NCBI GenBank assembly: GCA_963808625.1 | Contig: CAWEHK010000007.1 | Location: forward strand, 1-29,780 | Direction of reading: 5' to 3' | Length of the DNA stretch: 29,780 bases | Source: an uncultured delta proteobacterium | GTDB taxonomy: Bacteria; Desulfobacterota; Syntrophobacteria; Syntrophobacterales; Syntrophobacteraceae | In this document: positions 2,989 to 28,497 of the stretch, piece after piece | How positions within the stretch are numbered: position 1 is the stretch's first letter | Layout: every line of letters starts with the position of its first letter | Notes under the pieces: generated by a model | Told to the model about the DNA's origin: nothing | Seen by the model: only the letters and a program-made list of their open reading frames with translations | Database searches by the model: none | Made by a program: the position numbers and the translations under genes

Positions 2989-3114
2989 TCAGACTTGTCC
3001 TTGACAGCATCCAGGGTGCGTGCTAGTCGGGAAACGGTGCAACACAATTGCTTATCACCAGGCTCATCCGGTGGTATTGCCGATGCCAACGACTTGAATG
3101 TTCATCCAAAATCG

Positions 3115-3962
3115 ATGCGGCGAAGTTTCTGGCAACAAGTAGTCATCCTCCAAGCCAAAATGATCAGTCATCTGTACTGTTGCCTGGTTGGTCAAGAAAT
3201 CAGAAGGCGCCGCCGCAGCAAACGGTTCAACCATTTTATCGAACCGGCACAATGCGTCGCGATTCTGGCACCGCACATGGATGACGAAATAATCGGTTGC
3301 GCGGGTCTGATGCATCGTTATGTACAGCAGGGAACCCGGGTGATGATTGTCTATCTCACCGATGGTGCCCACGCCCTGAGGGGGAAGAGTGGAAAGGGCG
3401 CAACCGGCAACGGCTTCAAGAGAGTGAGCGTGCCACTAATTTCTTCGGGATTCGGGATCGTTTCCTGTTGCAGCAACCCGACGGAGCTCTCAGCGCAGAT
3501 TCATCGGCAGGGCTTCAGCTGGCGTCCATTTTTCATCGTGAGCGACCACAGATCGTCTTTCTCCCCTATCCGTGTGATCCTCATTCGGATCATCGTCAGA
3601 CATTCCTGATCATGAAAGATATTATCCGGCAGGGCAAACTCGATGTGTCCGCGTTCTTCTATCAGGTTCGCGCTCCTATACCCGTCAGGCTGATCAGCAC
3701 GATACTCGATATTTCGCCATCCGCAGCCTTGAAAAAACGGGCGCTGGGCTGCTTTGCTTCGCAGGACCAGATGGATTTCAACCTGTTGCTGCATTTGCAG
3801 CGATGTCAGGGTTATCTCCTGGGGTGGAAGCCAAGGCTGGTAGAGGTCTTTGCCCGCGTCGAGGCTGCAGCCTGGCAGTGGTCCCCGGCGTATTTATCCA
3901 ATAACGGCAGGCAAATTTCAGGCCATCGCCATGTTCCATTCTATGCGCTGACGGGCAGTTAA
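3115..3962 (+). CDS. PIG-L/LmbE family de-N-acetylase (frameshift in G5 run at 3380-3384)
   Basis: LAPHMDDEIIGCAG (HxDD), VYLTDG, R...QES, PDG and DPHSDH motifs across two frames; one added G restores LRGEEW. Alternative start at 3160. Confidence 0.88.
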
Positions 3963-4045
3963 ACCCGTTAAGGATTGGAAGTTGCTGGCTCGCTTGTTTG
4001 CGGTTTCTGTTGTCAATGAGAGATTTTGAATTGAGGGTTTTCGAG

Positions 4046-4705
4046 ATGTTTTCAAAAGGAGCCGCGAACCGATGGTTGCTCAGCCTCTACGAAAGGCTGC
4101 TCGATGCGACGCTGTCGAATCGCGTGCCGGGGCGTCTGCGCGGATTCCTGTATCGGAGCTGTTTTGAACTCCTTTATCTGGCGGGAGATCCGTGGCAGTA
4201 TGAAACCAGCGGGTACGAAAGGACCAAGTACCTGCAAATCCTGGCTGGTTTGGGAGGGGAACGACCCCGGCGGGTTCTGGATGCCGGTTGCAGTATTGGG
4301 ATTTTCACCGAACTTTTGGCGGAGCGCGTGGAATCCCTGGAGGCGTTTGACTTTTCATGGGTGGCAATCGGTCGGGCGAAGAAACGATGCCGCTGCCACC
4401 AAAACATAACCTTCCACCAGACCGATTTCTTTCGCTTTGACCCGAAGCAGCCTTTCGACGTCATTGTTTGTTCGGAAATCTTTTACTATTTCTGGGAACC
4501 CTTCCGCCTGCGGGTGCAAATGCGGCAGAAACTGCTGGATTGGCTGGCCGAGGGGGGCAGGCTCATCATCGTTTGGGGCGGGACGCGCCTGGACCTGGAC
4601 CTCGATTCCTTCTTGGCGCAAACGCCCCGTTTGCGTCTTCTCGCTTCAAAGCACTATTGCGATCGTCACCGGGATTATCGGATCTCGACTTTTCAAAGGC
4701 AATGA
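4046..4705 (+). CDS. Class I SAM-dependent methyltransferase, NodS-like
   Basis: DPWQYETSGYERTKY (NodS-type N-terminus), VLDAGCSIG motif I, FDVIVCSEIFYY. GAGGG lies 8 nt before ATG 4046. Confidence 0.85.
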   Translation: MFSKGAANRWLLSLYERLLDATLSNRVPGRLRGFLYRSCFELLYLAGDPWQYETSGYERTKYLQILAGLGGERPRRVLDAGCSIGIFTELLAERVESLEAFDFSWVAIGRAKKRCRCHQNITFHQTDFFRFDPKQPFDVIVCSEIFYYFWEPFRLRVQMRQKLLDWLAEGGRLIIVWGGTRLDLDLDSFLAQTPRLRLLASKHYCDRHRDYRISTFQRQ

Positions 4706-4787: not shown

Positions 4788-5780
4788 ATGGAATCCCTGG
4801 AGAGCTTGGACCCTTGCATGCAGGTAGATATCGTCTATCTCTGGGTGGATGGTTCAGCTCCCGGCTTCAAAAAAAAGCTGAGGCTGCGCCTGGGGTCATC
4901 TCCTTCGGTCGAGTCCGCCGACCGGAACGGAATCCATCGCTTTCGGAACAATCAGGAGTTGCTCTTCTCCTTGCGTTCGGTCCGCCGGTTTGTCCCCTGG
5001 GTGCGCAAGATTCATCTGGTAACGGATGGCACCTATCCCTCCTGGCTCGACGGTCATCACGAAAAAATCAACCTGGTGACTCATCGCCAGATTTTTCATC
5101 GCCGAGAGGATTTGCCGGTATTCAACTCCAATGCTATTGAGATGAACTTGCACCGCATTCCGGGCCTGGCCAAGAAATTCCTCTACTTTAACGATGATCT
5201 CTTCCTGGGGCGTCCGCTTCGGCTCGAGGACTTTCTGACCAGTACGGGCAGCCATATTTTCTATCTCGAGCCGAACGTCCTGCATCGGGATCCGGATTGC
5301 GGGCCGGTTCATGATCGCGCCTATGCTTACACGCAAAAACTGGTACGGGACCGATGGAACGGGGTCGCGCTCCCCTATCTTCCAGCCCATTGCCCACAAC
5401 TCTACGACCGGGACCATCTCTTTCACCTGGAGCGACTTTTTCAGGAGGCATTCGAAAGAACCAGAGCGCATCCGTTTCGTTCACCTGAGGACCTGGTGTT
5501 GCGGATACTCTACTGTGCTTTCCTGCTATCTGATGAGGAGCGGGATAAAAGGCATCACAGCCGGTTGCTGACGTGGGGTGGTCCGGATTATTCGTTTATA
5601 AGCATGGAGAAAAAAACAATCGCTATGGTGCGTGCCTTTACCCATGTTATGTGGAGACGACCTAAATTCATCTGCATCAATGACGATCTCGGTGATTCTA
5701 CAAAAGACCGTTTTCTTCTGAAATTGGAAAAGCTTGTCCTCAACCTGCTGTATCCACAAAAATCCTGTTTTGAAAAATAA
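4788..5780 (+). CDS. Stealth family sugar-1-phosphate transferase
   Basis: CR1 VDIVYLWVDG; CR2 RFRNNQELLFSLRSV...FNSNAIEMNLHRIPGL..KFLYFNDD; CR3 HCPQLY...HPFRS; CR4 FICINDD. The start may be 4818. Confidence 0.93.
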   Translation: MESLESLDPCMQVDIVYLWVDGSAPGFKKKLRLRLGSSPSVESADRNGIHRFRNNQELLFSLRSVRRFVPWVRKIHLVTDGTYPSWLDGHHEKINLVTHRQIFHRREDLPVFNSNAIEMNLHRIPGLAKKFLYFNDDLFLGRPLRLEDFLTSTGSHIFYLEPNVLHRDPDCGPVHDRAYAYTQKLVRDRWNGVALPYLPAHCPQLYDRDHLFHLERLFQEAFERTRAHPFRSPEDLVLRILYCAFLLSDEERDKRHHSRLLTWGGPDYSFISMEKKTIAMVRAFTHVMWRRPKFICINDDLGDSTKDRFLLKLEKLVLNLLYPQKSCFEK

Positions 5781-5807: not shown

Positions 5808-6713
5808 CTACTCGTCCTCGAAGAGGAACAGCCCATGTTCGACACGTTTCGCGGCCGTCTTCGAGATTTTCGCGCCAAGCTCGCCGTTGCTCAGGACAGG
5901 TCTTCCCGAGTATCCCAATTCCTGGAGAAAAGTAAATATCTCTTCACATTCGTATCCGTATCTTTCAGTCCACCTTCGCTCAATTTCGAGCACAAGTGAA
6001 GGTCTCTGCTCGCGAAGCACACGGCACCCACCGTGCAATACCTTTAATTCCAACCCTTCGACGTCGCACTTGATAACTCGTGCGTCCGCAATCTCCTTTT
6101 CTCTACAGTAGACATCGATGGTTGTCGTCGGGACACGAACGCGGCGTGCCATCGTCTCATTCTTATTGCCCACTGCATGGCTCCACTGCCCGCTCGAGAT
6201 CATGACCATGCTGCCGCACGCTTCCGCAACAGCCACGTTGTTCAGGACGATCCGGTGCGAAAGCTCACTCGCTTCAACGCCGAGCGCCAGGCCTCGGAAA
6301 ATCTCCGGCACCGGTTCGAAAGCATGCACGCTTGCCCTGGCTGATGACTTTGCCGTCGCCATGGCGTAGTAGCCGAGATTGGCACCTATGTCGAGGAATG
6401 AACCTCCGTCTTTGAGCCTGTTCAGGCATATCCTGACCCCTCCGGTTTCCCATAACCCGCTCTTCTCCACTCCCCACAGCTTACCACTGCTTACGCGCGG
6501 ATCGAACCACAGGTAAAAACCTGGAACGGTCCGGACAAACACATTTCCGGAATCGACCAGAAGGGGCCTGAGCCCCTGGTTGATGCTCAATTCCTTGCAG
6601 CGGCCAACCAGGTCGGCCAGTTCCAGCTCAGCCAGCACTGAGGGATGATTATGGTATCGCCATTTTCTAATGCGGGAGAGCAACTTGTGCAAAAGCGCAG
6701 AAGAAGTATCCAT
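5808..6713 (-). CDS. FkbM family methyltransferase
   Basis: FLDIGANLGYY, VHAFEPVP, TTTID, IKCDVEGLELKVLHG; GGGAGG RBS upstream. Confidence 0.92.
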   Translation of the reverse strand: MDTSSALLHKLLSRIRKWRYHNHPSVLAELELADLVGRCKELSINQGLRPLLVDSGNVFVRTVPGFYLWFDPRVSSGKLWGVEKSGLWETGGVRICLNRLKDGGSFLDIGANLGYYAMATAKSSARASVHAFEPVPEIFRGLALGVEASELSHRIVLNNVAVAEACGSMVMISSGQWSHAVGNKNETMARRVRVPTTTIDVYCREKEIADARVIKCDVEGLELKVLHGGCRVLREQRPSLVLEIERRWTERYGYECEEIFTFLQELGYSGRPVLSNGELGAKISKTAAKRVEHGLFLFEDE

Positions 6714-6781: not shown

Positions 6782-7984
6782 TCAATCTCGATGGCGCGGG
6801 GAGCTTTCCATGAGATGTTCTTCCAGACCGTCAAAGACCCTCTTCCACCGGTATTTTCGTGCCGCCAGCTCCCGTGATCGGTCCCGAAAGGCTTCCCATT
6901 TTGTCCGGTCGTCCAGAAGACTCCGGATTTCCCGGGCCATCGCTGCTGCCTCTTCGGCGACTCCCAGGTCCCTTCCCGGGACAACCTCCAGACCCTCCGC
7001 ACCGATCGGTGTGGTCACCGTGGGAAGGCCCCGGTACATGGCCTCGATCACTTTGACCTTCATGCCGCTGCCAAACCGGAGAGGAGCGACAAAGACGCGA
7101 CTCTTCGCATAATAAGCTTCGATGGCATCGACAAAACCCATCAGGTGAATGTCCTTGTGGTCGGCCACCAGTCTGGGGAGTCTCCTGCCCACGTGCCTCC
7201 CCACGATATAGAACCTCAAGTCGGGCTTTTCCTTCTTCAATGCCGCCCATACCTTCTCGATAAACCAGGCCAGGCCGTCCGCATTCGGCTCCCAATCCAG
7301 CGTGCCGACGGCGAGCAAAGCCTCTTCGGTGCTTTCGAATTCAAGCCTGGGAAGGTTGAGGAGCGCCTCGTTGCCAAGATGCAGGGTTTCCTCCAGGCGC
7401 GAGCGGGGGATTCCCAGCCTTGCCAGAGCTTCGATATCGTTTGGGGCCGCCAGGATGCGATGCGCCTTTTGGCCAATCACTTTCAGATAAGTGCCGATTC
7501 TCCTGGCTTCAAGAAGAATCAGTCCTCTTTTCAACAAATTCTGTTCGATTTTGGCGTAACGTTCCCAGACAAGGTACTCGGCATTGTGTTCATGCACGAT
7601 CACCCTGCCGGAAAAACAGGGTGGAACGTACTGGAACATCAGGTACGAATCCACGAAAAGCACCTCATAAAGCGGCGCGATGCTTGCCACATGCTTCCTG
7701 AAAGTGGGAGAATAGTTTCGGTAGACCGTCAGGGGCACCCGCCGCACGTAGCACCTGATGAGATTTGCGGCATTTCTTGCACGGCTGAGCGACTCCGCAT
7801 AAAAGGAGGTAACCTTGATCCTGGACAGAAGCGGTGCCTGCCAGCGCAGGTCTTCAGGGGGACCGAGGGCGGCGATGGCGAGATCGTGGCGTGCCGCGAG
7901 GTACTCGACGAGCTTCCAGCGTTTGATCGACCCGCCGCTGATGGGGGGATAGGGCAATTTGTGGCTGAGAAAAAGGATTTTCAT
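6782..7984 (-). CDS. GT4 glycosyltransferase resembling those of PEP-CTERM/EPS loci
   Basis: MKILFLSHKLPYPPISGG, HEHNAE, GTLDWEPNADG, VFVAPLRFGSGMKVKVIEAM, TTPIGAEG. Confidence 0.92.
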   Translation of the reverse strand: MKILFLSHKLPYPPISGGSIKRWKLVEYLAARHDLAIAALGPPEDLRWQAPLLSRIKVTSFYAESLSRARNAANLIRCYVRRVPLTVYRNYSPTFRKHVASIAPLYEVLFVDSYLMFQYVPPCFSGRVIVHEHNAEYLVWERYAKIEQNLLKRGLILLEARRIGTYLKVIGQKAHRILAAPNDIEALARLGIPRSRLEETLHLGNEALLNLPRLEFESTEEALLAVGTLDWEPNADGLAWFIEKVWAALKKEKPDLRFYIVGRHVGRRLPRLVADHKDIHLMGFVDAIEAYYAKSRVFVAPLRFGSGMKVKVIEAMYRGLPTVTTPIGAEGLEVVPGRDLGVAEEAAAMAREIRSLLDDRTKWEAFRDRSRELAARKYRWKRVFDGLEEHLMESSPRHRD

Positions 7985-7987
7985 GTC

Positions 7988-9144
7988 ATGAAACCGAAGA
8001 AGGTCCTCATGGTCCAACCAACTCTCCAGCCTCCCGGAGGTGGCAATGCCGTCACTGCGCGTGGATCCTCGAGGCCCTCAAGGACGACCATGACCTGACG
8101 GTGCTGTCTCTGTGCCCCGTCGATCTGGCTTCGATCAACCGGCACTACGGCACGGCCTTACAGACATCCGAGCTTACCTGCCGTCTTGCCTGGGCGAGAC
8201 TCATCCCCATCCTGGAGCGCATGATTCCCACACCGATGAGTCTGCTTAAGACTTCGCTCCTCCTTCGAGCCTGCAGGAAAATCGAAGCTGCTTACGATAT
8301 CCTGGTGACCGCCAACAATGAAACCGATTTCGGCCGCCGGGGAATCCAGTACATTCACTATCCGTGGGGTTTTCCCCGTCCCCTCGTTGATTTGCGCTGG
8401 TACCACAATCCCCTGGGGCTGGTGCGGCTCTATCATCGCTTTTGTGGGCGCCTCGCCGATTTTTCGACGCCTCGCATGAAAGGTAACGTGACCTTGGTCA
8501 ACTCCGACTGGATTAGCGGCGAGGTAAAGGCGCGTTATCCCGGGATTGCCACTCGTACAGTCTATCCTCCGGTCAGCGGGCGTTTCCCCGAGGTCCCCTG
8601 GGAGCGCAAAGAACCGGGTTTCCTTTGCATCGGTAGAATCTCACCCGAGAAGGAAATCGTCAAGGTAATCGAGGTCCTTGACCGTGTTCGCCGGCAGGTC
8701 CCCGGCCTTCATCTCCACATCGTGGGAAACCCCGATGATCCCCCGTATTTCCAGACGATTTCCAGGCTCGCAGCGACGATGGCTTCGTGGATTCACCTCG
8801 ACCTGGATCTTCCCCGGGCGTCGCTGCTCGACCTCATATCCCGCCATCGGTTCGGAATTCACGGCATGGAGGAGGAACACTTCGGGATGGCCATGGCTGA
8901 AATGATCACCGCCGGCTCCCTGGTCTTTGCTCCCGACAGCGGCGGCCAGAGAGAAATCATCGGCCAGCGCCCGGAACTGCTCTATCGTGACCCTGACGAG
9001 GCCGTGGCGAAGATCGTGCAAGTTCTTCGGTCGCCGGAGCGACAAAGTTCCTTGAGGGCGTACCTTGGCACACGAGCTGAACGCTTCAGCTGCGATCGGT
9101 TCATGGCAGAAATAAGGCAAATCGTTGCCGAGCTTGGAGCATGA
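7988..9144 (+). CDS. GT4 glycosyltransferase, ALG11-like (frameshift near 8060)
   Basis: The true N-terminus MKPKKVLMVQPTLQPPGGGNAVT joins WILEALKDDHDLTVL in the next frame. Motifs: IQYIHYP, LVNSDW, TVYPP, GRISPEK, GIHGMEEEHFGMAMAEMITAG, SGGQREI. Confidence 0.85.
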
Positions 9145-9336: not shown

Positions 9337-10089
9337 ATGAAACAGAAATCACTTCAGTGGCTTGGATGGGGACTTCTGATGGGGCTCGTTCTGGCATTGG
9401 CAACCGGTGGATCGGCTCACGCTGCAGACGGCGTTGCCCGGTACTTTGTGGGAGGGAGTTGTCCATTTACCCTCTTTACCACGTCGAATGACTCATACTT
9501 CATGTACTCATACGCTGAAGAGCTGAGTCCACCCCCGGAATGCGGGAATATAGTGCAGATTGGAATCAACCAGACCGTGAACTGGATCGCTGATCGATCC
9601 CCATTGCAGAATACCACGTTTGCTCCGGGCGATTGGGGCTATACTTTTGACTGGGCGATAACGATGTCGCCTGAGGCGCTCGGTCTCTCCAGTATTGCTT
9701 GTTACAAATACGCTATATCGCCAGGGATTTTCGATTCGTCTGGGAACTTTGCCCTGCTGGGTACTTCACTCTCTGGACCCTTCCCGCCCTCTCCCCTCAA
9801 TGGTACGCTTCAGGGAATTATCAACCTCCCTTCATTCACCGTACCGGAGGGCTCCCGCTTTGGGGTGAGCTTTCTTTTTGGCGGGCGCGTTGGCTGCCCG
9901 CCGGCACTGCTCAGCATTACCACCGGCAACACGGTGAGGCTCTCCGCCACAGAGTCGGTCCCGCCGTATCCGCTCTCCTTATTTGGTGCCGTTCCCACGT
10001 TCACCCAATGGGGATTGTTGCTCATGTCCATCCTGATTGCCATGGTCGGCGTCTGGGCCGCAAGGAAGCGGGCGAAGGCACAGAGCTAG
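9337..10089 (+). CDS. Secreted protein with C-terminal IPTL-CTERM (IPTLxxWG) sorting domain
   Basis: Signal peptide ending SAHA; C-terminus AVPTFTQWGLLLMSILIAMVGVWAARKRAK (motif, TM helix, basic tail); GGAGG RBS. Confidence 0.88.
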   Translation: MKQKSLQWLGWGLLMGLVLALATGGSAHAADGVARYFVGGSCPFTLFTTSNDSYFMYSYAEELSPPPECGNIVQIGINQTVNWIADRSPLQNTTFAPGDWGYTFDWAITMSPEALGLSSIACYKYAISPGIFDSSGNFALLGTSLSGPFPPSPLNGTLQGIINLPSFTVPEGSRFGVSFLFGGRVGCPPALLSITTGNTVRLSATESVPPYPLSLFGAVPTFTQWGLLLMSILIAMVGVWAARKRAKAQS

Positions 10090-10272: not shown

Positions 10273-12072
10273 TCAGGCAACCGGCAGTTGGTGGATTTCA
10301 GGGCATTCCCGCATCACCTTATCCAGCGAGTCACCCACAATGACATGGCCTTGGTGAAGCAGGAAGATCTTGCTGCAAAGCTTCAGCGCCTGCAAGCGGT
10401 GAGAAACGAGGATCAGGGTGGTCTGCCGGCAGCAGGCGTGAAGCGACTGGATGAGGAGTCTTTCGGTATGAGTGTCCAGGGCTGAGGTAGCTTCATCGAA
10501 AATCAGGACAGCAGGTTCCCGGTAGAGGGCGCGCGCGATGGCCAAACGCTGCCGTTCGCCCCCGGAGAGCCGCGTCCCCCGCTCGCCAACAACTGAATCC
10601 AGCCCCTGCGGGAGAGAAGCGACAAAACCTTCGAGCTGTGCCAGGCGGATGGCAGTCCGGAGCTTTTCGCCATTCACCTCATGATCGGGGACCCCCAAGG
10701 CCACATTCCTTCCCAGCGAATCGTCGATCAGATAAGGATGCTGGGGAACGTAACCAACGCCCCGGCGCCAGTTTGCCAGCTGTTGCTGAAGGCTCTCGCC
10801 GTCAAGCAGAATCGCTCCCGAGGTGGGACGCAGCAAACCCAGCATCAGGTCCAGGAACGTACTTTTCCCCGCCCCCGTGGGACCGGCAATACCGATTGAT
10901 TCACCCCATCGGACCTCGACATTGACCCCTTCGAGGACCGGAGGTCGTCGGTTCGGATAGGCAAAGGAGACCTCTTCAAAGCGCAGCCCTTCTGCAAAAC
11001 GCAGCGCTCTGTTGCCGGGACCCCGGGTGGATGTGACCTCGCGGCCAATGCCAAAGGCATTGAAATCTCTCGCTAACAGGCTGACATCAGTCCCCCCGTA
11101 GCGGATGTTGTTGAGGTACATGATCAGCCGATTGGCCGAGGGGATGGCCCGGAATCCCGCGTAAGCCAGCAGGCCGAGAAGGGCTACCGCATTCTGGTAA
11201 TCGGTCAGGTGACCGAAGGTTGAAAAGACAATTCCCAAAGGAATGCAGACGAAAACGGTTTCTACGAGCAGGCGGGGGATGGCGTTGAGGGTGGCGTGCC
11301 ATTCCCGCACCCGGGAGAGACTGTTCAGATGGTTTTGCAGGACCTCGAAGGAATAATCTTCCCGCGCCATGACCTTGATCTCCTTGATCCCACCGAGCGC
11401 TTGTTGGATGGTCTTCAAAACATCCTCTCTCAGGGTCTGCTCTTTCCCTCCCAACTTAAAAAAAAGGCGATGGGTTACGAACAGCAGCGAACCCAACAGG
11501 CAGGTCAGCAATAGTACCGCGACCATGGTCATGCCGGGTGCTGCCGCCAGGAGGACCCCAATGATCGCCGCCAGGACCAGGACCTCGGAGATGAGGGAAA
11601 CCGTCGATTCCAGAACCATGTGAACGGCACTGTCCGTGCAACGGATGATACGGTTGATGAGGTCCGCAGAATTCCTTTCGAGGTGGAAGAGATAGGGTGC
11701 CTTGAGATAATTGCGGAAGAGTTGGCCAGCCAGCATGGCGATGGCCCGACTGGTGAGACGTGAACGGAGGAACGCGAAACCCATCAGATACACGTTCTTG
11801 AAAACATAAAAAGCGGCCACAAGGAAGGCGAAGAAGAAGACCGTGGTCTTGCCGTCGGTCCCTGATACGGCCACATAAAGGCCGGAAATAAAAGGGATAT
11901 CCAGAATCTTGGACGGATCTGCAAGGATTTTGAGGAGGCAGAAGATGGCGCCTGCCCCAATGGCCTCGGCGATGGCTTCCACCAGCGACAGCGGGACCAG
12001 GGCGGCCCATTGGAAGCGCCTCCGAAGGTCGAGCAGGAGGAAGGCTTCTTTGATCGTTCTATACATGGCCAT
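10273..12072 (-). CDS. ABC exporter (TMD+NBD), PglK/WlaB-like lipid-linked oligosaccharide flippase
   Basis: N-terminal TM bundle with YLFHLERNSADL; GPTGAGKST Walker A, GYVPQ Q-loop, LSGGERQR signature, IFDEATSALD. Context: overlaps a GT4 gene and lies near the OST. Confidence 0.85.
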   Translation of the reverse strand: MAMYRTIKEAFLLLDLRRRFQWAALVPLSLVEAIAEAIGAGAIFCLLKILADPSKILDIPFISGLYVAVSGTDGKTTVFFFAFLVAAFYVFKNVYLMGFAFLRSRLTSRAIAMLAGQLFRNYLKAPYLFHLERNSADLINRIIRCTDSAVHMVLESTVSLISEVLVLAAIIGVLLAAAPGMTMVAVLLLTCLLGSLLFVTHRLFFKLGGKEQTLREDVLKTIQQALGGIKEIKVMAREDYSFEVLQNHLNSLSRVREWHATLNAIPRLLVETVFVCIPLGIVFSTFGHLTDYQNAVALLGLLAYAGFRAIPSANRLIMYLNNIRYGGTDVSLLARDFNAFGIGREVTSTRGPGNRALRFAEGLRFEEVSFAYPNRRPPVLEGVNVEVRWGESIGIAGPTGAGKSTFLDLMLGLLRPTSGAILLDGESLQQQLANWRRGVGYVPQHPYLIDDSLGRNVALGVPDHEVNGEKLRTAIRLAQLEGFVASLPQGLDSVVGERGTRLSGGERQRLAIARALYREPAVLIFDEATSALDTHTERLLIQSLHACCRQTTLILVSHRLQALKLCSKIFLLHQGHVIVGDSLDKVMRECPEIHQLPVA

Positions 12073-13322
12073 CCACGGCGGCGGTGGTGCGGATCAGATG
12101 ATCAAGCCGAAGGCCAAAGACCTCCTTCGAGAACAACGCGGAAGCCCGCTTCTGTGCGGCAACTCCCAGCCCGGCGGCTCGTCGCGGATCGTGAATCAGC
12201 CCGGCGATGGCCTCAGCAAAAGCTTGAGGGGTTGGGTCCGAGAGGCATCCAGTGAGGCCGTCCTCAACGATTCCGAGGGCCCCCCCGGTTCACGGCAATA
12301 ACCGCTTTCCTCGCCGCCATGGCTTCGACGATCCCGATACCGAAATGCTCTTCGACACTGGTATAGACGAGGCAGAAACAGTCCTGCAGGAGCTGCCGGC
12401 GGTGTCCATCGGTCACGTTGAGGAGGAAATCCACGCTTCCCTCCAGATTCAAGCGTCGTGACAGTCCCACCAGGCCCTGCCAGGTCCGCCGCTGCTCGAC
12501 GAGGCGCTCGTCACAGCCCCCAACCATCGTCAGCCTCACCAAGGCAAAAACGTCCGGGGGTAAGAGCTCTCGCAAGCAGGCCAGCGATTCCAGCGCGAGC
12601 TGCAGATTCTTGCGGGGGTCAAAGCGGTTGACGGAGAGAATGGTCAAGGGATCCGGGCCTGAGTTCACCGATGGGTCCGGAAGATGCTGTTCCCGATTCA
12701 TATAGGCTTTTACGTCAACGCCGGGATGGAGCACTTCGATGCGCCTGGTCCTGAGGGATGGAAAAGTCCGAAGGAGAACCTCCCTGGTGAAAAGGCTATT
12801 GACGAGGACCATGTGCGCCATCGCGATCCCCGCCTGTTCGAAGTAGTCGAGAGGGAGGCGATAGAGATTGTACCAGGGGTTTCGCGGTGGAGTCAGAAAG
12901 ACGTCGGGAAAATGACAGTAGTAGAGCACTCTGGCTTTGGCAAAGCAACGCAGGAAGGGAATCACGTGCGGTACGAGATCGCAGAAAACCACGTCGGGTC
13001 CCATCTTTTCCCTGATCATAGCCCCAATGAGAAACCCCATGCGGGCGAGCATGCACGGGACCCTTAGATGACCGGCAATGCTTAATGGCATGGGCACTCT
13101 CGGCTGCCGTACAGTCAGGGGATACCCTTTTGGAACCTTATCCCTTGTCTCGCTGAGGCACCGTGAAGGATCGGCGCGGGCGGTCAGGATCGTTACCTCG
13201 TGACCGCGTTCGCGCAGCGCCAGGGCTGCGTCCACCACCAGCCGCTCCGAACCCCCGATACCGAGCTCCGGGTGGATAACCACAATCTTTAAAGACCTCG
13301 AAGGTCGGTGTGAGTCACCCAT
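12059..13322 (-). CDS. GT4 glycosyltransferase, ALG2-like (frameshift near 12272-12286)
   Basis: HPELGIGGSERLVVDAALAL, LYYCHFPDVFLT, YRLPLD, LVNSLFT, TFPSL, LSVNRFDPRKNLQLALE, GGCDER, EHFGIGIVEAM, AVNRGGP. The continuation IVEDGLTGCLSDPTPQAFAEAI..DGHV* ends at 12059 and overlaps the ABC start codon. Confidence 0.9.
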
Positions 13323-13492: not shown

Positions 13493-15733
13493 GTGGAGGT
13501 TCGAGAGACTTTCGCTATGGCCTGCGTTCCCGAAGTTTCTGGTGGTGAGACCATTGAGCATCGAGCCTCCCGAAGCAATTGGTGGTGGTTTCTCCTTCCT
13601 TTTCTGGCTTTCATGCTCAGCTTCGGGATCAGATTGCTCGACCTTCGTGCCTGGCAGTCGCCGGAATTTTGGGCCTATGGCGAACGGCTCGCGACAAATG
13701 CTGACAGTTATGGATGGTATGCCGGCGCCGAGCGGATCAACCATCTTTCCAACCAATTCCTGGCCGGGCTGCTGCGATGCCTTCACGATAGCACCGGATG
13801 GAACATCGGAGAAATCGGTTTCTGGTTGCCGGCCTTTGTTGCTTCCCTGTCGGCGATTCCGCTTTGCCTGCTGGCAGTGGGCTGGGGCGTTCCCGAAGGA
13901 GCGCTGCTCACCGGGGTGCTGGGGGGGGCCGCGGTCCCCTACCTGATTCGAACTCGTCTCGGGGCCCCGGACATGGATGTGCTGACGCTCTTCTTCCCTA
14001 TGACCATTGCCTTGTTGCTGTTGCTCTGGATGAAGGCCGCCGGCAGTATGGCTGAGAATTCAAATTGCGTGCAGTCCCCGGTTTCAAGAATCCCCCCCTG
14101 TCCCCCCTTTGCAAAAGGGGGGGATCAAAATTCCCGCTTCTTTCTCTTCGCCTTTCTTACCGGACTCATGGCGAAGCTTTATCTTCTGCTGTATCCGGGC
14201 GGGTTGCCCATTTTGGCGAGCTTGCTTGGCTGTGCCGGGGTGTTGGTCCTTCTCCCCTGGAGCGCCAGGAAAGCCTTGGTTTACGCTGTGGGGCTCATGG
14301 CCATTCTTGCCCTCGGTACCGGGGGTTGGTTTGCTTTTGTGCTCGTTGCGGCCATCATGATCCCGGGAATCTTCCGGCCGCAAATCATCTCGAGGGAGAA
14401 GGCGCTTGTCATTATTCCGGTCCTGCTCCTGGCAGTCTTCATCCTGGACACTGATTTGTCCGGGAAGATCTCCCAGGCATGGTCCGATGTCCTCCGCTAC
14501 GGCCGCCGGTTGAACCCTGGCGCCTCGGTTCACATTCCTCCCACGATTATGACCGTGAGTGAGGCCGTCCTGGTGAATCTGCACGCCACAGTCAGAATGA
14601 TTGCCGGCAATTGGGTCATTTTCACGCTCGGCTTGACCGGGTATTTTTACCTGATACGCCAGCGTTGGCACCTGCTGATTTTTCTTCCCCTGCTGATCCT
14701 GGCTATGGGCAGCATCAGATTTGGTGTCCGCTTCAGTATGTATGGGGGTTGCGTGATCGGGCTCGGTTTGGGTTGCGGTCTGGCCCTGATGATGCGGGAC
14801 TTGCGCCTGCCGGCGATGCTGCGATGGGTCCTCTCAGCCAGCCTTCTGGCCTTCTTTCTATGGGACATGGTTGATACGATGAAAGTGTTCAAACCGGTCC
14901 CGGTCGTCTCGAAAGACTTTGCTCAGGCGCTCACGGACATCAAGGAAGACGTCCAACCGGATGCGCAATTTTGGGTCTGGTGGGATTTCGGTTATCCTGT
15001 GCAATATTTTGCCGAGCGGCGGACGTTTGCGGATGGGAGTCGGAACAGTGGCGAATATCTGGTTCCCCTCGCGCGCATCCTGACTAGCGACTCTCCGCGC
15101 CATGCCAGGGATTTGATAATCTTTACCGCTCAGGCCCAATTGACTTCCGGCCCGGAAAGGCATCCTCCAACAAAAGTCCCCCTGTTTCCAAACCCCTTCT
15201 TGAACCTGCTCCACCAATTGGACCCGGCGCAGGCGCAGAAGCTGATCGAAGGGCCGGCAAACCATCCCATCGGTCCCGGCGTTGCCCTTCCGCCTCAATA
15301 TGTGGTGGTTTCCTGGGAGACCGTGGGATTGGCTCCGATCATCAGCAGCTTCGGCACCTGGAACCTCGTTGACGGCTCCTACCGGGCCGGCGGGATGTTC
15401 CGTCTCGCTCAAGCCAGCCCCGTCGACCTTGAGGAAGGGGTCCTGGAAGCAAATGAAGAGCGCATCCCGATAGCCCACCTTGATGTCCTCTCACAGGCGG
15501 GCAACCGGCATTTTGAATGGCCTGGAAACCAGACCGGCTGGTCGGTTTTGGCCAACAGCGAAAACAATATGGGCCTGATCATCGAGAGCAGGCTCTATTC
15601 CTCACTGATGGTGCAGATGCTCATTGCGGGTCCTGAGAAAATGATGCCATACTTTGATCTGGTCCTCGACCGTTCGCCCTTTGTGAGAATTTTCCGGGTC
15701 CGTGATAACGACAACGATTGGAAGAGTCATTGA
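13493..15733 (+). CDS. pglB: STT3/PglB-family oligosaccharyltransferase
   Basis: Multi-TM N-terminal domain with TNADSY, RTRLGAPDMD (DxD), TVSE (TIxE/SVSE) and GVRF; C-terminal soluble domain with WWDFG (WWDxG) and TFADG. Start is GTG 13493 or ATG 13517. Confidence 0.93.
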   Translation: MEVRETFAMACVPEVSGGETIEHRASRSNWWWFLLPFLAFMLSFGIRLLDLRAWQSPEFWAYGERLATNADSYGWYAGAERINHLSNQFLAGLLRCLHDSTGWNIGEIGFWLPAFVASLSAIPLCLLAVGWGVPEGALLTGVLGGAAVPYLIRTRLGAPDMDVLTLFFPMTIALLLLLWMKAAGSMAENSNCVQSPVSRIPPCPPFAKGGDQNSRFFLFAFLTGLMAKLYLLLYPGGLPILASLLGCAGVLVLLPWSARKALVYAVGLMAILALGTGGWFAFVLVAAIMIPGIFRPQIISREKALVIIPVLLLAVFILDTDLSGKISQAWSDVLRYGRRLNPGASVHIPPTIMTVSEAVLVNLHATVRMIAGNWVIFTLGLTGYFYLIRQRWHLLIFLPLLILAMGSIRFGVRFSMYGGCVIGLGLGCGLALMMRDLRLPAMLRWVLSASLLAFFLWDMVDTMKVFKPVPVVSKDFAQALTDIKEDVQPDAQFWVWWDFGYPVQYFAERRTFADGSRNSGEYLVPLARILTSDSPRHARDLIIFTAQAQLTSGPERHPPTKVPLFPNPFLNLLHQLDPAQAQKLIEGPANHPIGPGVALPPQYVVVSWETVGLAPIISSFGTWNLVDGSYRAGGMFRLAQASPVDLEEGVLEANEERIPIAHLDVLSQAGNRHFEWPGNQTGWSVLANSENNMGLIIESRLYSSLMVQMLIAGPEKMMPYFDLVLDRSPFVRIFRVRDNDNDWKSH
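14090..14125. repeat. Palindromic C/G-run element in frame within the OST gene
   Basis: ATCCCCCCCTGTCCCCCCTTTGCAAAAGGGGGGGAT, read as IPPCPPFAKGGD in a loop between hydrophobic segments. Confidence 0.7.
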
Positions 15734-16926
15734 CCAACGAATCTGGAAGCCCCTGTGCACCGGCTGGAGTGCGCGAAATCGTCCCGCCGGAGGACGCCAC
15801 CATCCTCGTATGCTGCGGCGATACGGCCGGCCACCTCTTCATGGCGGCCGCAGTGGCGGATATTATCAAGGAGCACTGGCCTTGGCGCGAGATTGTCTTT
15901 GTCGGAGCAAGAGGCCGCGTGCCCATCGAGGATTTGTTGGGACCAGAGGGAAAGATTCACCTTCTCAGAATATCCCCGTTCGAACGCAACAACCTTGCAG
16001 CCAACGTCTTATTGCCCTGGAAGATGGGCCTTAGCATGGTGCAGTCCTTTCAGCTCCTGAAAAAATACCGACCGGCATTGGTGATCGGTTTGGGCGGGTA
16101 CCCCAGCGGGCCGCTGCTTGTTACCGCCGCGTTGCGCCGGGTCCCGTCCCTCATCATCGAGCCCAACTATGTCCCGGGACTCACCAACACTCTGCTCAAA
16201 AGTGGAGTCGATCGCATCTGTGTGTCTTTCCTGGACACCATGAGGCGATTTCCAGAGAGAAAGACGGTTTGCACGGGGACTCCCATAAGAAAATCCATCC
16301 TCAGCACCAGCGTCCGTCGGGAAGAGGCATGCGCGAGGCTGCAACTCAGCCCGAATTTGAAAACGCTGCTGATCGTCGGGGGCAGCCTGGGCTCCGACTC
16401 GCTCAATCGGATGGTGCTGAAGAGCATGACTCCTCTCTCAGAGGAGCAAGACCTTCAGTTCTTGTGGCAAACCGGTGACCAGTACTTCGAACGAATCCAA
16501 AATGCCGTTGCCCAGAGGGGTATTGGTCGGTGCCGCGTGGTGCCGTTCATCGAACACATGGCAGAAGCCTACCGTGCTGCCGACCTCGTCGTTTCTGCGG
16601 CAGGGGCGGTTACCCTGGCGGAACTTGCCTGCCTGGGCAAGCCGATGATTGTCATTCCCTCGCAAGAGGTGACGGCCAATCATCAATTCATGAACGCTCG
16701 CTACTACGCGGCAAAGGGAGCATGCGTAATGATTTCCTCCCGGGATACGGGTTGCGTCCTGGCAGCAAGAACCATGGAGATGCTCCACAGCGAAAGAGAA
16801 CTCAAGAGGCTGGCGGAGAGGGCCAAAGCCGCAGCACATCCCTTTGCCAACACCAGGATCGGAACGGAAATCGAAAAGTTATTATGGAACAGGCGCCGGG
16901 CTTTGACAAACTTCCTGGAAACATGA
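15730..16926 (+). CDS. MurG-like GT28 UDP-GlcNAc transferase (orphan paralog outside a dcw cluster)
   Basis: CGDTAGHLF, GLGGYPSGP, EPNYVPGLTN, TGTPIR, GGSLGS, WQTG, FIEHMAEAYRAADLVVSAAGAVTLAE, HQFMNA. TTG 15730 overlaps the OST stop codon. Confidence 0.9.
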   Translation: MTNESGSPCAPAGVREIVPPEDATILVCCGDTAGHLFMAAAVADIIKEHWPWREIVFVGARGRVPIEDLLGPEGKIHLLRISPFERNNLAANVLLPWKMGLSMVQSFQLLKKYRPALVIGLGGYPSGPLLVTAALRRVPSLIIEPNYVPGLTNTLLKSGVDRICVSFLDTMRRFPERKTVCTGTPIRKSILSTSVRREEACARLQLSPNLKTLLIVGGSLGSDSLNRMVLKSMTPLSEEQDLQFLWQTGDQYFERIQNAVAQRGIGRCRVVPFIEHMAEAYRAADLVVSAAGAVTLAELACLGKPMIVIPSQEVTANHQFMNARYYAAKGACVMISSRDTGCVLAARTMEMLHSERELKRLAERAKAAAHPFANTRIGTEIEKLLWNRRRALTNFLET

Positions 16927-17019: not shown

Positions 17020-17661
17020 TCAAGGATTGGGCCTCTGGCCTCTTGGGCCGATATGACGCCTCGTGAAGAGGGTGACATACCAATCAGACTTCAAAATTTC
17101 AGCGCCGAGTTTCAACTTAAATCGCACGGCAGGAGTGTTGAAACGCTCACTAATACTGTAAAGTTTAGTCCGGCCCTTCCGGGCCAATTCCTCGTATAGG
17201 CGATATCGGAGAGCTGGGGCCACTCCCTGCCCGCGTAACTCAGGGGCGGTATATGCGTCAAAGAGATAAGCCTCATCATCCTTAAGTGGAAACAAGTAGC
17301 CTGCAGTCTTACACCAAGTCAGGTTACACCATGTAAAAGCCGCCAAATGGGCGGCGCGTTTTGCACCGAGACAGAGGTTCCCGGCTTTCAATCGGCCCTC
17401 CAGTTCCTCATAGCGGAACGGCCTATACGGTATTCGCGCCATCTCCGTCATGTCCTCCAGTCCCAGAAACTCGACTTCATAATCCTCAAGCACATCCTGG
17501 CACGGCCGGGCAACACCTGCGACGATTCCTTCTCGGATAAGGTAAATGAGGCGGATCTGGATCCCTAACTTGTCAAGACCGTCGATGAAGAGGCGGGGTA
17601 GAGGGCTGTAACGGACCTTGTCTCGAAGGTGTTTGGGATAGCTCGTTCGGTTGGGCGACAT
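17020..17661 (-). CDS. GNAT family acetyltransferase
   Basis: AYLFDAYTAPELRGQGVA (acetyl-CoA motif A) and NTPAVRFKLKLG (motif B). Confidence 0.85.
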   Translation of the reverse strand: MSPNRTSYPKHLRDKVRYSPLPRLFIDGLDKLGIQIRLIYLIREGIVAGVARPCQDVLEDYEVEFLGLEDMTEMARIPYRPFRYEELEGRLKAGNLCLGAKRAAHLAAFTWCNLTWCKTAGYLFPLKDDEAYLFDAYTAPELRGQGVAPALRYRLYEELARKGRTKLYSISERFNTPAVRFKLKLGAEILKSDWYVTLFTRRHIGPRGQRPNP

Positions 17662-17782
17662 CTTCGATAATTCCTTTTCGGATGAGCTGCTAGGAGATCG
17701 CTATTTGAGGCTTTTCGGGTAGCAAGTGCGGTCGATTCTGTCAAGGACATATTTCTTTGGAACGAAGAAGGTTGAATCCCTG

Positions 17783-17810
17783 TTGACACGTCATCGCCTG
17801 CAGCTATACT
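17783..17810 (+). promoter_or_regulatory. Sigma70-type promoter upstream of the BKACE gene
   Basis: TTGACA (17783-17788), 16-nt spacer, TATACT (17805-17810). Confidence 0.65.
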
Positions 17811-18000
17811 CAACTTGCCCATGGGTCAAGAAAACGGGGCAAGAAACAAGCAAGGACCCTCAGGCTACTGGGCAAGAGTAAAATCCATCGAAAACCCCGG
17901 TCCGCCGCCGTAAACCGCAGCACAACCCTCCTCCGTGGGGCATTTGAGGCAGGCATCTTTACGAAGACCAGGCCCCCCCTGGGATGGAGAGGCAAGAGGG

Positions 18001-18911
18001 ATGCAGTTGGATCTGATCGTGAATTTCGCTCCCACCGGGATGATTCCGACCAAACAGTTGACTCCTCACGTACCGATCAGTGTCAGCGAAATCGTGGCAG
18101 AGGTCCACGAAGCCTATGAAATTGGGATTACCATGGTTCACCTTCACGCCCGGGACGAGCGCTCAGGAGAACCCACCTACAAGGCTGAGGTTTACCGGGA
18201 AATCATGGAGGGGATTCGGCGGTTTACCAAGGACTTGGTGGTGGGCGTGTCATTGAGCGGCCGTACCTTTCGGGAATTGGAGAAACGAACGGAGGTGCTG
18301 CAACTCGAAGGCCCCTTGAAACCGGATATGGGCAGTCTGACCTTGAGCTCGGTCAACTTTAACCGGGAGGCCAGTGTGAGTTCCCCGACATGATCCAAGC
18401 CCTCGCCGGAGAGATGAAGCACCGGGGGGTCCTGGCCGAATTGGAAGCATTCGATGTGGGCATGATTAACTACGCCAAGTACCTGGAGAAGAAGGACCTG
18501 TTGGCAGCTCCGCACTACTTCAACCTGGTGCTGGGTAACACGGCGTGTGCTCAGGCGGACCTCCTGCATGCGGGACTGATGGTCCGCGACTTGCCCCCGA
18601 ACTCCTACTGGAGTATGGCAGGAATCGGCAATGCCCAACTGATGATGAATGCTGTCGCAATTGCTGCCGCCGGGGGAGTGAGAGTCGGTTTGGAAGACAA
18701 CATCTGGTATGATCCAGGCCGCACCAGACTGGCCCGCAACGCCGATCTGATAAGGCGCATTCATCGTCTGGCCGATGCCAACGAGAGAAAAATCATGGCT
18801 CCTGTTCGGCTCAGGCAGTTGCTCCACCTGGAGCCGGGGCATGGACGGTATGGCAGGAGATGCCGGACGGAAAAGAATGTCCCCGAGCCATGCAGCAAAC
18901 AAGCTTGGTGA
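18001..18911 (+). CDS. Beta-keto acid cleavage enzyme family (Kce/BKACE, DUF849); frameshift in C4 run at 18383-18386
   Basis: APTGMIPTK..TPHVP, MVHLHARD (HxH), PDMGSL, ELEAFDVG, GGVRVGLEDN, ARNADLI; one added C restores SSPDMIQ. Confidence 0.92.
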
Positions 18912-18916
18912 ATTTG

Positions 18917-20209
18917 TCAATTCATTCTCTCCCGACGGAATAATCCAAGCGGTGTGGAATCTTCATCAACCGGCAGCTCAACGAAACAGGTCCGGGGCAG
19001 CTCATTCACCGGTTTTTGCCAGGCGGGCGACGCGACCACATAGAGTTGGTGAAGCCCGGGTGTCAACAGGGAACGAACAATCATCCGAGCATGGCCCGCA
19101 GATACCGGTCTGCGGCTTTCAATCATCGTCAGTACCGACAGACTCTTCTGGTCGAGAAAAACAAGGGGCGTGGACGACAGGAAAGAAGCGACCGGCTCAT
19201 TTAACCGCGGCCAGTATACCAAAAAATCATACCGGTTGTCAGGCTTCGCCGCAAGCTGCATCCCCCATTTGCGCTTGTACCTCAGCACCCCGTCGTTGAG
19301 CATTGGACGAGATCCACCGAAATTGATCCTTTTGCATCCAGCCTGACGAGCATATTCCACAGCGTAGTAGTAGAGGGCCGCTATCCCTCCCGCTTTAACC
19401 GGCGCCCATTTCCCATTCGCCGTGCCTTCTGCCAGCAAATGCAGCACTTCACCATGCTGCTCAAAAAGCATACCGGTGATCCGCTGGCCCTCCCGGACGG
19501 CCCATAAAAGACCCCCTTCCTGAAAGCTGCGGCGTATCTGATGTACATTGCGCAGAACTGCCTGATCTCCATACCGCATGAGAATGAAGGGAACGTACAT
19601 CGTCTGGTAAAATAGTTCGAAGTCTGCCCACGAATGAGAAACCAGGGAGGTAAGGCCATTACGGCTTATCAGGCGCAGATCTTTAGCAACACTGTGGCTG
19701 GCATGAATCAAGTCCGCAGGATCATTGGGTACGGTCAGCCAGGCGTCAACCCACTCCGGTACAATCAAATAATCGTGATCAAAAAAAAGCTTAGCCGAAA
19801 ACCGATCCACGCGGGCAATAGTCAAGTCGGCACAAGCCCGAAGACGCTTCAAAGTGCGGCATAGCTCCCAGATCGGGACCTTGGCGACCAAGTCTCGGTG
19901 AGGCTGTTCTTTAAAGAAGCGATTAGCCAGATAGCCAACCCGGGCTTCGGGGCCGGCAATAATGACGGTCGCGAACTCGTCGGAAAACCTGCTTGGACCC
20001 TTGAGTATGGTGATCGAATGCAAACAATTATAACATGGCAACAGATAGGGAAGGAATCGACCGAAAGCCCTTATGACTATGGCAGGCAAACATTCCTGCA
20101 TCCTTCCAAGCATCTCAGGCACGAGAACTGTCGCATCAACCCCGACCGTCACTGCTAAGGAACCTCCCTCCTTTCGGTTCCACACCGTTCGGCAAGTTAC
20201 CTCCCTCAT
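18917..20209 (-). CDS. GNAT-fold (Acetyltransf_6/FemAB-like) protein
   Basis: DFELFYQTMYVP, ALYYYAVEYARQAGCKRINFGGSRPMLNDGVLRYKRKWG pattern; GGAG RBS. Confidence 0.72.
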   Translation of the reverse strand: MREVTCRTVWNRKEGGSLAVTVGVDATVLVPEMLGRMQECLPAIVIRAFGRFLPYLLPCYNCLHSITILKGPSRFSDEFATVIIAGPEARVGYLANRFFKEQPHRDLVAKVPIWELCRTLKRLRACADLTIARVDRFSAKLFFDHDYLIVPEWVDAWLTVPNDPADLIHASHSVAKDLRLISRNGLTSLVSHSWADFELFYQTMYVPFILMRYGDQAVLRNVHQIRRSFQEGGLLWAVREGQRITGMLFEQHGEVLHLLAEGTANGKWAPVKAGGIAALYYYAVEYARQAGCKRINFGGSRPMLNDGVLRYKRKWGMQLAAKPDNRYDFLVYWPRLNEPVASFLSSTPLVFLDQKSLSVLTMIESRRPVSAGHARMIVRSLLTPGLHQLYVVASPAWQKPVNELPRTCFVELPVDEDSTPLGLFRRERMN

Positions 20210-20615
20210 GTATCTACTCCAGAAAAGATAGCGCTCGATGAATTATGGGACATTCAGCTAATGACTTCAAGAATAAGTTTATGGCGCAGCTGATTCGATT
20301 TCAGCCTCGTCGAAACCCGGAGGCTAAAATCAAAAATGGCCATAACTTAACAACTGAACCATGTTGAAGGTGTGAGCTGTTTATTGACGATATGCTTGCT
20401 TTATAGACAGTTCTTCAACCGTTGATTCTTCGGTGAACAGGGCAGGTATAGACACTCTTCAAAGATGATTTATCTCATCAAATGCCAAAAAATCGGCACG
20501 TGAATGTCCTTGACGGCATCCATGACAGCTGATATCCAAAAGCCTCAAAGAGTTTTATTTCATCTCGCTCCAAATGGACATTCGGGGCGAAATTCGCTGA
20601 AACAAGGGGAACTCT

Positions 20616-22562: not shown

Positions 22563-22730
22563 GTTGTCCAGGCTGACATTCATTTCGCCATCGAGCACTC
22601 TGCCGCTCCAAGTCAACCGAATCCAATGCGCATAGGCCGTGGCTGAGTATTGGCACGGCTGTTCGGGTTTTCGAGGCGGCAGCTTCGCTTACGCGGCAGC
22701 GTCATACGAAGCGGGGTTGATAAGAGGAGC

Positions 22731-22835
22731 TAGTTCTCATCCGGAAAGTGTCACCTTGCACTGTAGGGGCTTCCAGCCCCGGTCGCGGCTGGAAGCCCCT
22801 GGGAATTTTACCTACAAAATGGGGTTTCCGGGTGG
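22731..22835. repeat. GTAG-type REP/REPIN-like element, copy 2 (inverted relative to copy 1)
   Basis: TTCTCATCCGGAAAGTG..TGTAGGGGCTTCCAGCCCCGG..GGCTGGAAGCCCCT..CCTACAAAATGGGGTTTCCGG matches the reverse complement of 2611-2714 with small indels. Confidence 0.85.
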
Positions 22836-23158: not shown

Positions 23159-23236
23159 CTACGCCAGGGTTTCACCTTTCATCAAATAGAGCGAAATGAT
23201 CTCGGCGAGTGTCAGGCGGATATCAGGGACTGTGTC
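23159..23236 (-). pseudogene. Fragment of a second WYL-regulator gene
   Basis: Translates to DTVPDIRLTLAEIISLYLMKGETLA*, versus TLPDIRLTLPELISLYLMKGE in the WYL gene at 26394-27438 (18 of 21 residues identical by manual count). Confidence 0.8.
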
Positions 23237-28478: not shown

Positions 28479-28497
28479 GGAACCGTTGGATGGATTC

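Follow-up and report, generated by a model that had tools for sequence, protein, structure and literature searches.

An ALG2-family glycosyltransferase gene beside a candidate flippase and an oligosaccharyltransferase in a bacterial gene island

ALG2 and its immediate neighbors

We analyzed a stretch of 29,780 nucleotides, referred to here as the window, from contig CAWEHK010000007.1 of assembly GCA_963808625.1, an uncultured delta proteobacterium of the family Syntrophobacteraceae. The window carries a gene related to eukaryotic ALG2, a mannosyltransferase gene of glycosyltransferase family GT4, and next to it genes for an ATP-binding cassette (ABC) exporter, an oligosaccharyltransferase (OST), and a second MurG-family enzyme. 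The four genes are as follows.

10273 to 12072, minus strand: PglK-like ABC exporter, candidate lipid-linked oligosaccharide flippase; its start overlaps the ALG2 stop
12059 to 13322, minus strand: ALG2-family GT4 glycosyltransferase of about 421 amino acids; one frameshift near 12275-12290; motifs G21-IGGSER and E325-HFGIGIV-E333
13493 to 15733, plus strand: PglB-type OST, divergent from ALG2; Pfam STT3 and STT3-PglB_core; true start uncertain
15718 to 16926, plus strand: second MurG-family (GT28) enzyme, candidate transferase of N-acetylglucosamine (GlcNAc) to GlcNAc-pyrophosphate (PP)-lipid; another MurG lies on contig C48

The minus-strand open reading frame (ORF) from 13322 to 12264 encodes 352 amino acids of the ALG2-family protein, and the last ~70 residues lie in another frame that ends with the stop at 12059. 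The break, at ~12275-12290, is located beside seven consecutive G residues in the coding strand. Two intact relatives, P0002 and P0003, are 416 amino acids long and 70-72% identical to the window protein, which carries a 5-residue insertion relative to them in the alignment; the insertion is covered without gaps by two related contigs, wholly by one and partly by the other. Together these give a length of 421 amino acids for the window protein, which fits the length of about 421 proposed for the repaired protein in an earlier reading made from the DNA letters alone (the sequence-only reading). All eight motifs quoted in that reading were found in the ORF from 13322 to 12264, and the overlap that it described between the ALG2 3' end and the flippase start measures 14 nucleotides. 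The motifs HPxLGIGG, YCHFPD, YRxP, and VNS on the acceptor side are retained. A scan of the gap between ALG2 and the OST gene found no sigma-70 promoter.

For similarity we used an echinoderm ALG2 obtained by search, in place of the human ALG2 strings quoted in the sequence-only reading. The ORF and this protein are identical at 146 of 343 positions (43%, 250 bits). When the break was read through with an X, two echinoderm ALG2s matched the protein at 272-280 bits and none of 18 other GT4 enzymes exceeded 76 bits, which bears out the earlier proposal that the similarity extends beyond generic GT4 motifs. The only matches in the PDB were WbaZ, PimA, and a GlgM-type enzyme, at 23-26 bits. An identity as a PimA/WbaZ-type GT4 was rejected, as these enzymes reached 24-26 bits compared with 250 bits for the echinoderm ALG2 and the best matches lie elsewhere; neither the search nor the tree described below placed the protein among them. 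In the Atlas, the model of the intact relative P0002 has a template modeling (TM) score of 0.90-0.92 to eukaryotic ALG2 models and 0.82-0.83 to ALG11 models, with predicted structures on both sides. Sequence comparison thus confirmed the window gene as a member of the ALG2 family. The best 120 of 1015 matches in a protein search included two that are eukaryotic by name (ranks 113 and 116) and seven that are bacterial, the others having no taxon. The window gene is no lone oddity, and bacterial ALG2s form a wide group.

The top NCBIfam match of the ABC exporter is PglK (279 bits, under the cut-off of 1000), and among the 60 PDB rows listed PglK is its best single-cassette match. The top PDB match of the OST is Campylobacter lari PglB (E value 1.5e-23), and the acidic residues (NADSY, PDMD, TVSE) and the WWDFG motif are present in the alignment of the two. 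Its identity to the resident OSTs is only 24-28% in all seven congeners compared. Elsewhere in the genome, an OST copy on contig C8 adjoins GT2 genes and a Wzx-type flippase gene.

In the MurG paralogue of the window, GDTAGH and IEPN replace GGTGGH and (H/L/M)EQN. The Gln of the EQN loop, which has been proposed to bind the lipid acceptor in the part of PMC8993221 available, is absent in all eight MurGs found in ALG2 clusters and kept in all five housekeeping MurGs. The cluster MurG is a second copy in 5/5 genomes tested, and the cluster enzymes score 207-250 bits on TIGR01133, being MurG-like by sequence. In a MurG tree, the paralogues of the window and of locus L005 form a clade of their own (100/100) apart from the other six (100/99); the cluster copies do not all fall in one clade, and deep support is weak.

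An ALG2 relative is located beside a lipid flippase and a protein-glycosylating enzyme, and therefore it probably helps to attach a mannose-containing chain to proteins. We consider it probable that the window enzyme is a cytoplasmic GDP-mannose-dependent alpha-mannosyltransferase in a horizontally acquired N-glycosylation island. GDP-mannose is its presumed donor; a ManC-like gene, which could supply it, was found in two pieces and below the cut-off.

Bacterial ALG2 genes: tree, distribution, and neighborhood

Homologues of ALG2 and ALG1 in bacteria have been reported, with an argument for bacterial ancestry, in a preprint by Xu et al. (2025, bioRxiv 10.1101/2025.10.15.682550). According to the parts of this preprint available, two of the four bacterial ALG2s assayed rescued a yeast alg2 mutant, and three of the four produced Man3GlcNAc2 (Man, mannose) in vitro, a Deltaproteobacterial one weakly. 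Since these homologues come with assays, a bacterial ALG2 is not new. The glycine-rich loop near the N terminus of the window protein is GIGGSER (GIGGAER in eukaryotes), and both glycines mutated in the preprint are kept. The EX7E motif reads EHFGIGIVE, in which both glutamates (E325 and E333) are kept, Val is replaced by Gly, and Pro by Ile. On the origin of the family, Lombard 2016 (PMC4973528), in the part available, favored an archaeal origin and placed ALG2 with archaea, and Kifer et al. (10.1101/2024.10.30.621208), as far as the text was available, found ALG1 matches in bacteria only.

We constructed a tree from 44 of 192 rows, picked by hand for spread, with five distant GT4s as the outgroup; neither ALG11 nor TACK/Asgard sequences were included, and the outgroup is ~6 changes per site distant. 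Against the five distant GT4s, the window protein and eukaryotic ALG2 fell into one clade (100/100). The window protein is located in a bacterial clade of six rows (98/84) that includes Desulfatiglans anilini and a Deltaproteobacterial metagenome-assembled genome. Fifteen eukaryote-type rows formed a single clade (99/95), of which one is named, four were recognized by eukaryotic-looking contigs or tree place, and the others were labeled from their position in a first tree; row P0132 shifted out of this clade and was counted as bacterial after inspection of the tree. A quick tree of 72 rows placed the window protein as in the 44-row tree.

When the window protein was forced to group with the 15 eukaryote-type rows, the resulting tree had an approximately unbiased p value (p-AU) of 0.009. 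Together with the six-row bacterial clade, this rejects a recent transfer from a eukaryote into this lineage. Bacteria as one clade had a p-AU of 0.60 and a likelihood slightly above that of the free tree. Of the two origins offered in the sequence-only reading, recent eukaryote-to-bacterium transfer thus falls, and the protein may belong to a prokaryotic sister clade. At this p-AU, the tree is compatible with a sister clade as well as with bacterial ancestry, and with either direction of an ancient transfer. The nesting of eukaryotes among bacterial ALG2s in the parts of the preprint available was not confirmed by the present tree.

A search of 121 further genomes from the class of the host found no ALG2, and no further loci of the window's ALG2 subclade were found among 40 relatives. 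A pattern scan of genome contigs for window-type ALG2 returned one locus. Desulfatiglans anilini WP_028320867.1 is a member of the window's subclade, and this species is in culture. In the class of G078, 14 of 201 genomes (G754 included) carried ALG2, as did 5 of 151 in the phylum to which the Rokubacteria record L001 belongs. Two samples of 400 genomes drawn at phylum level, with four candidates scored per genome, gave 1 and 6 other ALG2 genomes, all from the class of G078. This class, which bears the same phylum label as the host, is probably Binatia, as judged from the clustering of the G656 ALG1 with Candidatus Binatus proteins. ALG1 was present in 27 of the same 201 genomes that include 14 with ALG2, so ALG1-only clusters are common in this class. 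A divergent ALG2-like gene (31%; L094 10144-11646, genome G438) has no cluster neighbors, and no ALG1 was found in that genome.

We compared the neighborhoods of 27 bacterial ALG2 loci, comprising the window, L001, 7 of 80 metagenome loci, and 18 genomes, with G754 left out; the remaining 73 metagenome loci hold either ALG2s of the eukaryote type or distant GT4s. Using our own bit-score thresholds and queries derived from the clusters, we found near ALG2 an ALG1 gene in 20 loci, a PglK-like ABC gene in 20, an OST gene in 18, a MurG paralogue in 18, GT4b (the second GT4 of the cluster) in 14, and a WecA-like gene in 11. The ALG1 label is based on members annotated as beta-1,4-mannosyltransferase and also on a motif that we take to mark this family. 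Locus L005 repeats the window order of Stealth, MurG paralogue, OST, ALG2, and ABC genes. Three kinds of OST were found beside ALG2: PglB-like (the window and L005), Archaeoglobus AglB-like (Rokubacteria), and a third kind (L022 and the class of G078). The Rokubacteria OST (L001 9190-11490) matches Archaeoglobus AglB with an E value of 3e-59, far closer than eukaryotic STT3, and has no PglB match. An OST is kept although its kind changes, and we therefore infer function rather than mere inheritance.

Single-ORF fusions were found for ALG1-ALG2 (P0183, P0231, and P0157), WecA-ALG2 (P0126), ALG2-GT4b (P0412), MurG-GT4b (P0413), and an OST end to ALG2 (P0211), some of which may be assembly read-throughs. 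The conserved neighborhood suggests a lipid-linked, eukaryote-like N-glycan pathway. The similarity to ALG2 alone is already known. For the gene context, we found no title or abstract in open-licence PMC or bioRxiv that describes an ALG2 cluster with a flippase and an OST. The words operon, gene cluster, neighbo-, and synteny are absent from the main text of Xu et al. (10.1101/2025.10.15.682550) in the part available, which proposes no native pathway. We also observed a GT17 domain adjoining the cluster of G078 (L086 14323-15255), an Anp1 domain fused to GT4b in P0411, and tandem GT4b pairs in three genomes of one genus (G656, G678, and G740; L119, L120, and L121).

The island and the accuracy of the assembly

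The sequence-only reading had noted the flippase and missed the adjacent OST, the MurG paralogue, and the island in which these genes lie. The other features of the island are listed below.

2919 to 26436, no strand: inserted block of ~23.5 kb; splits a WYL gene near its 3' end; site empty in congener G006
3140 to 3962, plus strand: PIG-L-family N-deacetylase in two frames; start approximate
3998 to 4705, plus strand: NodS-like N-methyltransferase
4788 to 5780, plus strand: Stealth-family hexose-phosphate transferase; adjoins the MurG paralogue in L005 too
5808 to 6713, minus strand: FkbM-family methyltransferase, candidate for glycan O-methylation
6782 to 8017, minus strand: GT4 of the TIGR03087 (PEP-CTERM/XrtA) type; below cut-off
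7988 to 9144, plus strand: GT4b, the cluster's second GT4; frameshift from 2 extra bases at 8053-8057
9337 to 10089, plus strand: IPTL-CTERM protein, secreted-looking, candidate acceptor; 4 N-X-S/T sequons
24976 to 26303, plus strand: IS4-family insertion element with 26-bp terminal inverted repeats, at the block's right end; three further copies in the genome

The WYL gene interrupted by the island is whole in G006, and the island flanks are collinear with this congener. The recQ gene on the window contig is 85-92% identical to those of congeners in its best segment. Since the WYL gene is intact in G006, the OST of the island shares only 24-28% identity with resident OSTs of congeners, and recQ is congener-like, the block was acquired and the contig is native. 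The tetranucleotide distance of the cluster is ordinary, at the 21st percentile of 313 segments; with the recQ identity and the collinear flanks, this makes contamination of the bin unlikely.

The four sequons of the IPTL-CTERM protein compare with a shuffle mean of 1.6, an enrichment that is not significant (p 0.054). For GT4b, an identity as ALG11, suggested by a motif, was not supported: 0 of 48 members match PF15924 (ALG11_N) at E<=1. No ALG11 was found among the 16 matches of 430-2000 amino acids in a word-limited search, and in the Atlas GT4b has GT4s of bacteria and archaea as its neighbors.

The right half of the island (17020-24263) holds genes for a GNAT protein, a split BKACE protein, an asparagine-synthase-like amidotransferase, DUF116, and a 430-amino-acid protein with no Pfam match and two more homologues in the genome. 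The 10-mer TGTCCTTGAC occurs three times (0.05 expected, the pattern having been picked after it was sighted), at 2996-3005 (plus), 17740-17749 (minus), and 20505-20514 (plus). Each copy is located upstream of an island gene group and is possibly a promoter or operator in common. A palindromic repeat of ~100 bp is present at 2610-2718 and 22727-22842, the two window copies being inverted, and has many copies in the genome, like a repetitive extragenic palindrome or a miniature inverted-repeat transposable element. DinB (28426-29655) is 59% identical to the G015 copy, whereas the best copies of three congeners reach ~30%, and therefore the right end of the contig may be acquired too.

From 326 ORFs in 400 kb of the congener G006, we found 52 orthologues in this assembly (>=70% identity), of which 6 were frameshifted, with 7 breaks in 21,060 amino acids. 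The housekeeping MurG is also split into two pieces. The broken genes of the window itself are recQ, WYL, PIG-L, GT4b, the BKACE gene, and ALG2. At the GT4b break, the 2 extra bases are missing from near-identical contigs of two runs, and the two ALG2 pieces are 64-73% identical to an intact relative with no other stops. Given the frameshifted orthologues, the split housekeeping MurG, and the GT4b break missing from other contigs, the ALG2 frameshift is very probably an assembly error. No RNA run was among the runs listed as matching the window.

Proposed pathway, alternatives, and known systems

We propose a pathway that would begin with a host WecA-type enzyme, for which a candidate lies on contig C29, making GlcNAc-PP-undecaprenol. 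The spare MurG would add a second, beta-1,4-linked N-acetylhexosamine (HexNAc). A beta-linked manno-sugar would follow, for which no enzyme was identified in this genome. ALG2 would then add one or two alpha-mannoses, going by its family and by the activity of other bacterial members, and GT4b and the tailoring enzymes may lengthen and decorate the chain. Finally, the PglK-like transporter would flip the glycan and the PglB-type enzyme would move it to Asn-X-Ser/Thr; the families are assigned by sequence, and their link to ALG2 is drawn from the conserved neighborhood and the fusions. The acceptor of eukaryotic ALG2 is Man1GlcNAc2-PP-lipid in the part of PMC8827073 available, and dual alpha-1,3/1,6 transfer to it by the window enzyme is putative. 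PglBs of Desulfobacterota accept eukaryote-type sequons, according to the available part of PMC12229607.

Several observations weigh against an ALG2-dependent N-glycosylation island in this host. ALG1, the enzyme that produces the acceptor of ALG2, was sought in this 84.6% complete genome by tblastn, by genome search, and with a profile of 12 sequences (best score 26 bits), and was found neither in the island nor elsewhere; the 121 further genomes of the class yielded none either. Among genomes from the class of G078, by contrast, it accompanies ALG2 in 13 of 14 (12 of 13 without G754). The island holds no WecA, and the genome has three OSTs, two of them besides that of the island (contigs C2 63899-65198, C8 185182-186567, and C7). 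In EX7E, the window protein has Gly where a Val-to-Ala change lowered activity in the preprint (10.1101/2025.10.15.682550, parts available), and the following Pro is absent. Six or more frame breaks fall in the window, where ~3 would be expected (Poisson p ~0.12, by hand). Among the contigs listed for 4 of the 10 matching runs, which share only 5-11% of words, none spans the ALG2 break. The 27 loci are also related to each other, and many are cut by contig ends.

The missing ALG1 could simply lie in the unassembled part of the genome, so that the product would be Man3GlcNAc2-Asn as in the ALG1-containing clusters. This narrow version of the N-glycosylation reading is helped by the incomplete genome, by the 13 of 14 genomes just mentioned, and by the location of ALG1 on a separate contig from ALG2 in G697, G611, and G721. 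We nevertheless find it unlikely, as the island is bounded on both sides with no ALG1 inside, the 121 class relatives offer no ALG1 as a potential supply, and L005, of the same subtype, has none in its 13 kb, although that contig ends just after the ABC gene. Somewhat easier to entertain, if still tentative, is a change of specificity, in which a 'GIGIVE' subclade uses a different acceptor or donor and builds a non-eukaryotic N-glycan, for example on a beta-1,4-linked N-acetylmannosamine or its uronic acid (ManNAc(A)-beta-1,4-GlcNAc) made by a host WecG/TagA, or directly on HexNAc. Besides the failure to find ALG1, this is supported by the G-x-G-aliphatic form of EX7E in 24 of the best 120 matches, the separate clade of the window and L005 MurG paralogues, the WecG/TagA gene adjoining the WecA-like gene on C29, and the deacetylase, N- and O-methyltransferase, and Stealth genes of the island. 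On the other side, the acceptor-side motifs are kept, the C29 genes belong to a Wzc-type exopolysaccharide locus, and only two loci of the window subtype are readable at length. Given an N-glycosylation island, we rate a changed inner core as roughly equal in likelihood to canonical Man3GlcNAc2, or higher. Man3GlcNAc2 is not to be assumed for the window copy, because ALG1 was not found, the OST is PglB-type, the MurG groups apart, and the motif is EHFGIGIVE; on the same grounds, the window copy is a distinct subtype.

Two further explanations would take ALG2 out of a working N-glycosylation pathway. The island could be decaying, with ALG1 and the starter enzyme lost after arrival and ALG2 a real pseudogene, which would agree with four broken island genes (PIG-L, GT4b, ALG2, and the BKACE gene), with the IS4 element at the island edge, and with the lack of ALG2 in the 121 class relatives. 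We regard this as improbable, since native and essential genes (recQ, WYL, MurG) and 6 of the 52 test genes are broken too, the GT4b break is missing from near-identical contigs of two runs, and both ALG2 pieces are 64-73% identical to an intact relative with no more stops. Alternatively, ALG2 and the ABC exporter could serve a lipopolysaccharide or capsule pathway, the OST being an incidental neighbor. Stealth, FkbM, and TIGR03087-type genes, all present in the island, are usual in surface-polysaccharide loci, and 9 of the 27 loci have no OST in the DNA examined. An OST of one of the three kinds adjoins ALG2 in the other 18, however, and no Wzx, Wzy, or Wzc family match was found among the island ORFs scanned, which leaves this explanation very unlikely. 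N-glycosylation is the reading we favor, with the window copy as a variant that is incomplete or rebuilt; the assembly it comes from is prone to errors.

A broader model, to which we give somewhat less than even credence, is that bacteria run a native, mobile N-glycosylation system. In this model, a Man3GlcNAc2 core or a decorated form of it would be made by WecA, a MurG paralogue, ALG1, and ALG2 and transferred by any of the three kinds of OST; the system would be a relic of the source from which eukaryotic ALG1 and ALG2 came, or a sister to it, and the window subtype a rebuilt branch with a different inner core. The conserved association with flippase and OST genes points to a function for bacterial ALG1 and ALG2, directly testable by glycoproteomics. 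The clusters are also a source of natural OSTs and MurG-like enzymes with which Man3GlcNAc2 glycoproteins could be made in E. coli, and if a native Man3GlcNAc2 pathway exists, the cluster OSTs could be natural transferases of the chitobiose core for glycoengineering.

Compared with eukaryotic ALG2, the window protein is collinear over its full length (43% over 343 amino acids) and shares the glycine-rich loop and the EX7E glutamates, and the predicted fold of P0002 is closest to ALG2 models. It differs in lying outside the eukaryote-type clade, in EHFGIGIVE instead of EHFGIVPLE and GIGGSER instead of GIGGAER, in having no ALG1 or ALG11 partner found, and in its carrier, presumably undecaprenol. 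The ALG2s of Xu et al. (2025), in the available parts, are of the same family and overlap in taxa (Deltaproteobacteria and Methylomirabilota; Binatia for ALG1), but the Val called important there is Gly in the window protein. The Campylobacter pgl locus resembles the island in having a PglB-type OST and a PglK-like ABC flippase beside GT4 enzymes. The island, however, has no match to PglC, PglDEF, or PglA/H/J, has a MurG paralogue and ALG2 instead, and scores far under the PglB and PglK equivalog cut-offs. The cluster MurGs are like archaeal Agl24 and eukaryotic ALG13-14 (PMC8993221, part available) in their MurG fold, conserved His loop, and proposed step, and differ in being MurG-like on TIGR01133.

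The closest counterpart in pathway design is the engineered E. coli route to Man3GlcNAc2, which, in the available part of 10.1101/118224, uses WecA, yeast Alg13/14, Alg1, Alg2, and C. jejuni PglB. The window copy differs from it in lacking ALG1 and the starter enzyme. The complete clusters (for example, L001, G584, and G729) have one gene for each step of that route, but they are natural, a MurG paralogue replaces Alg13/14, and they bring their own flippase and OST.

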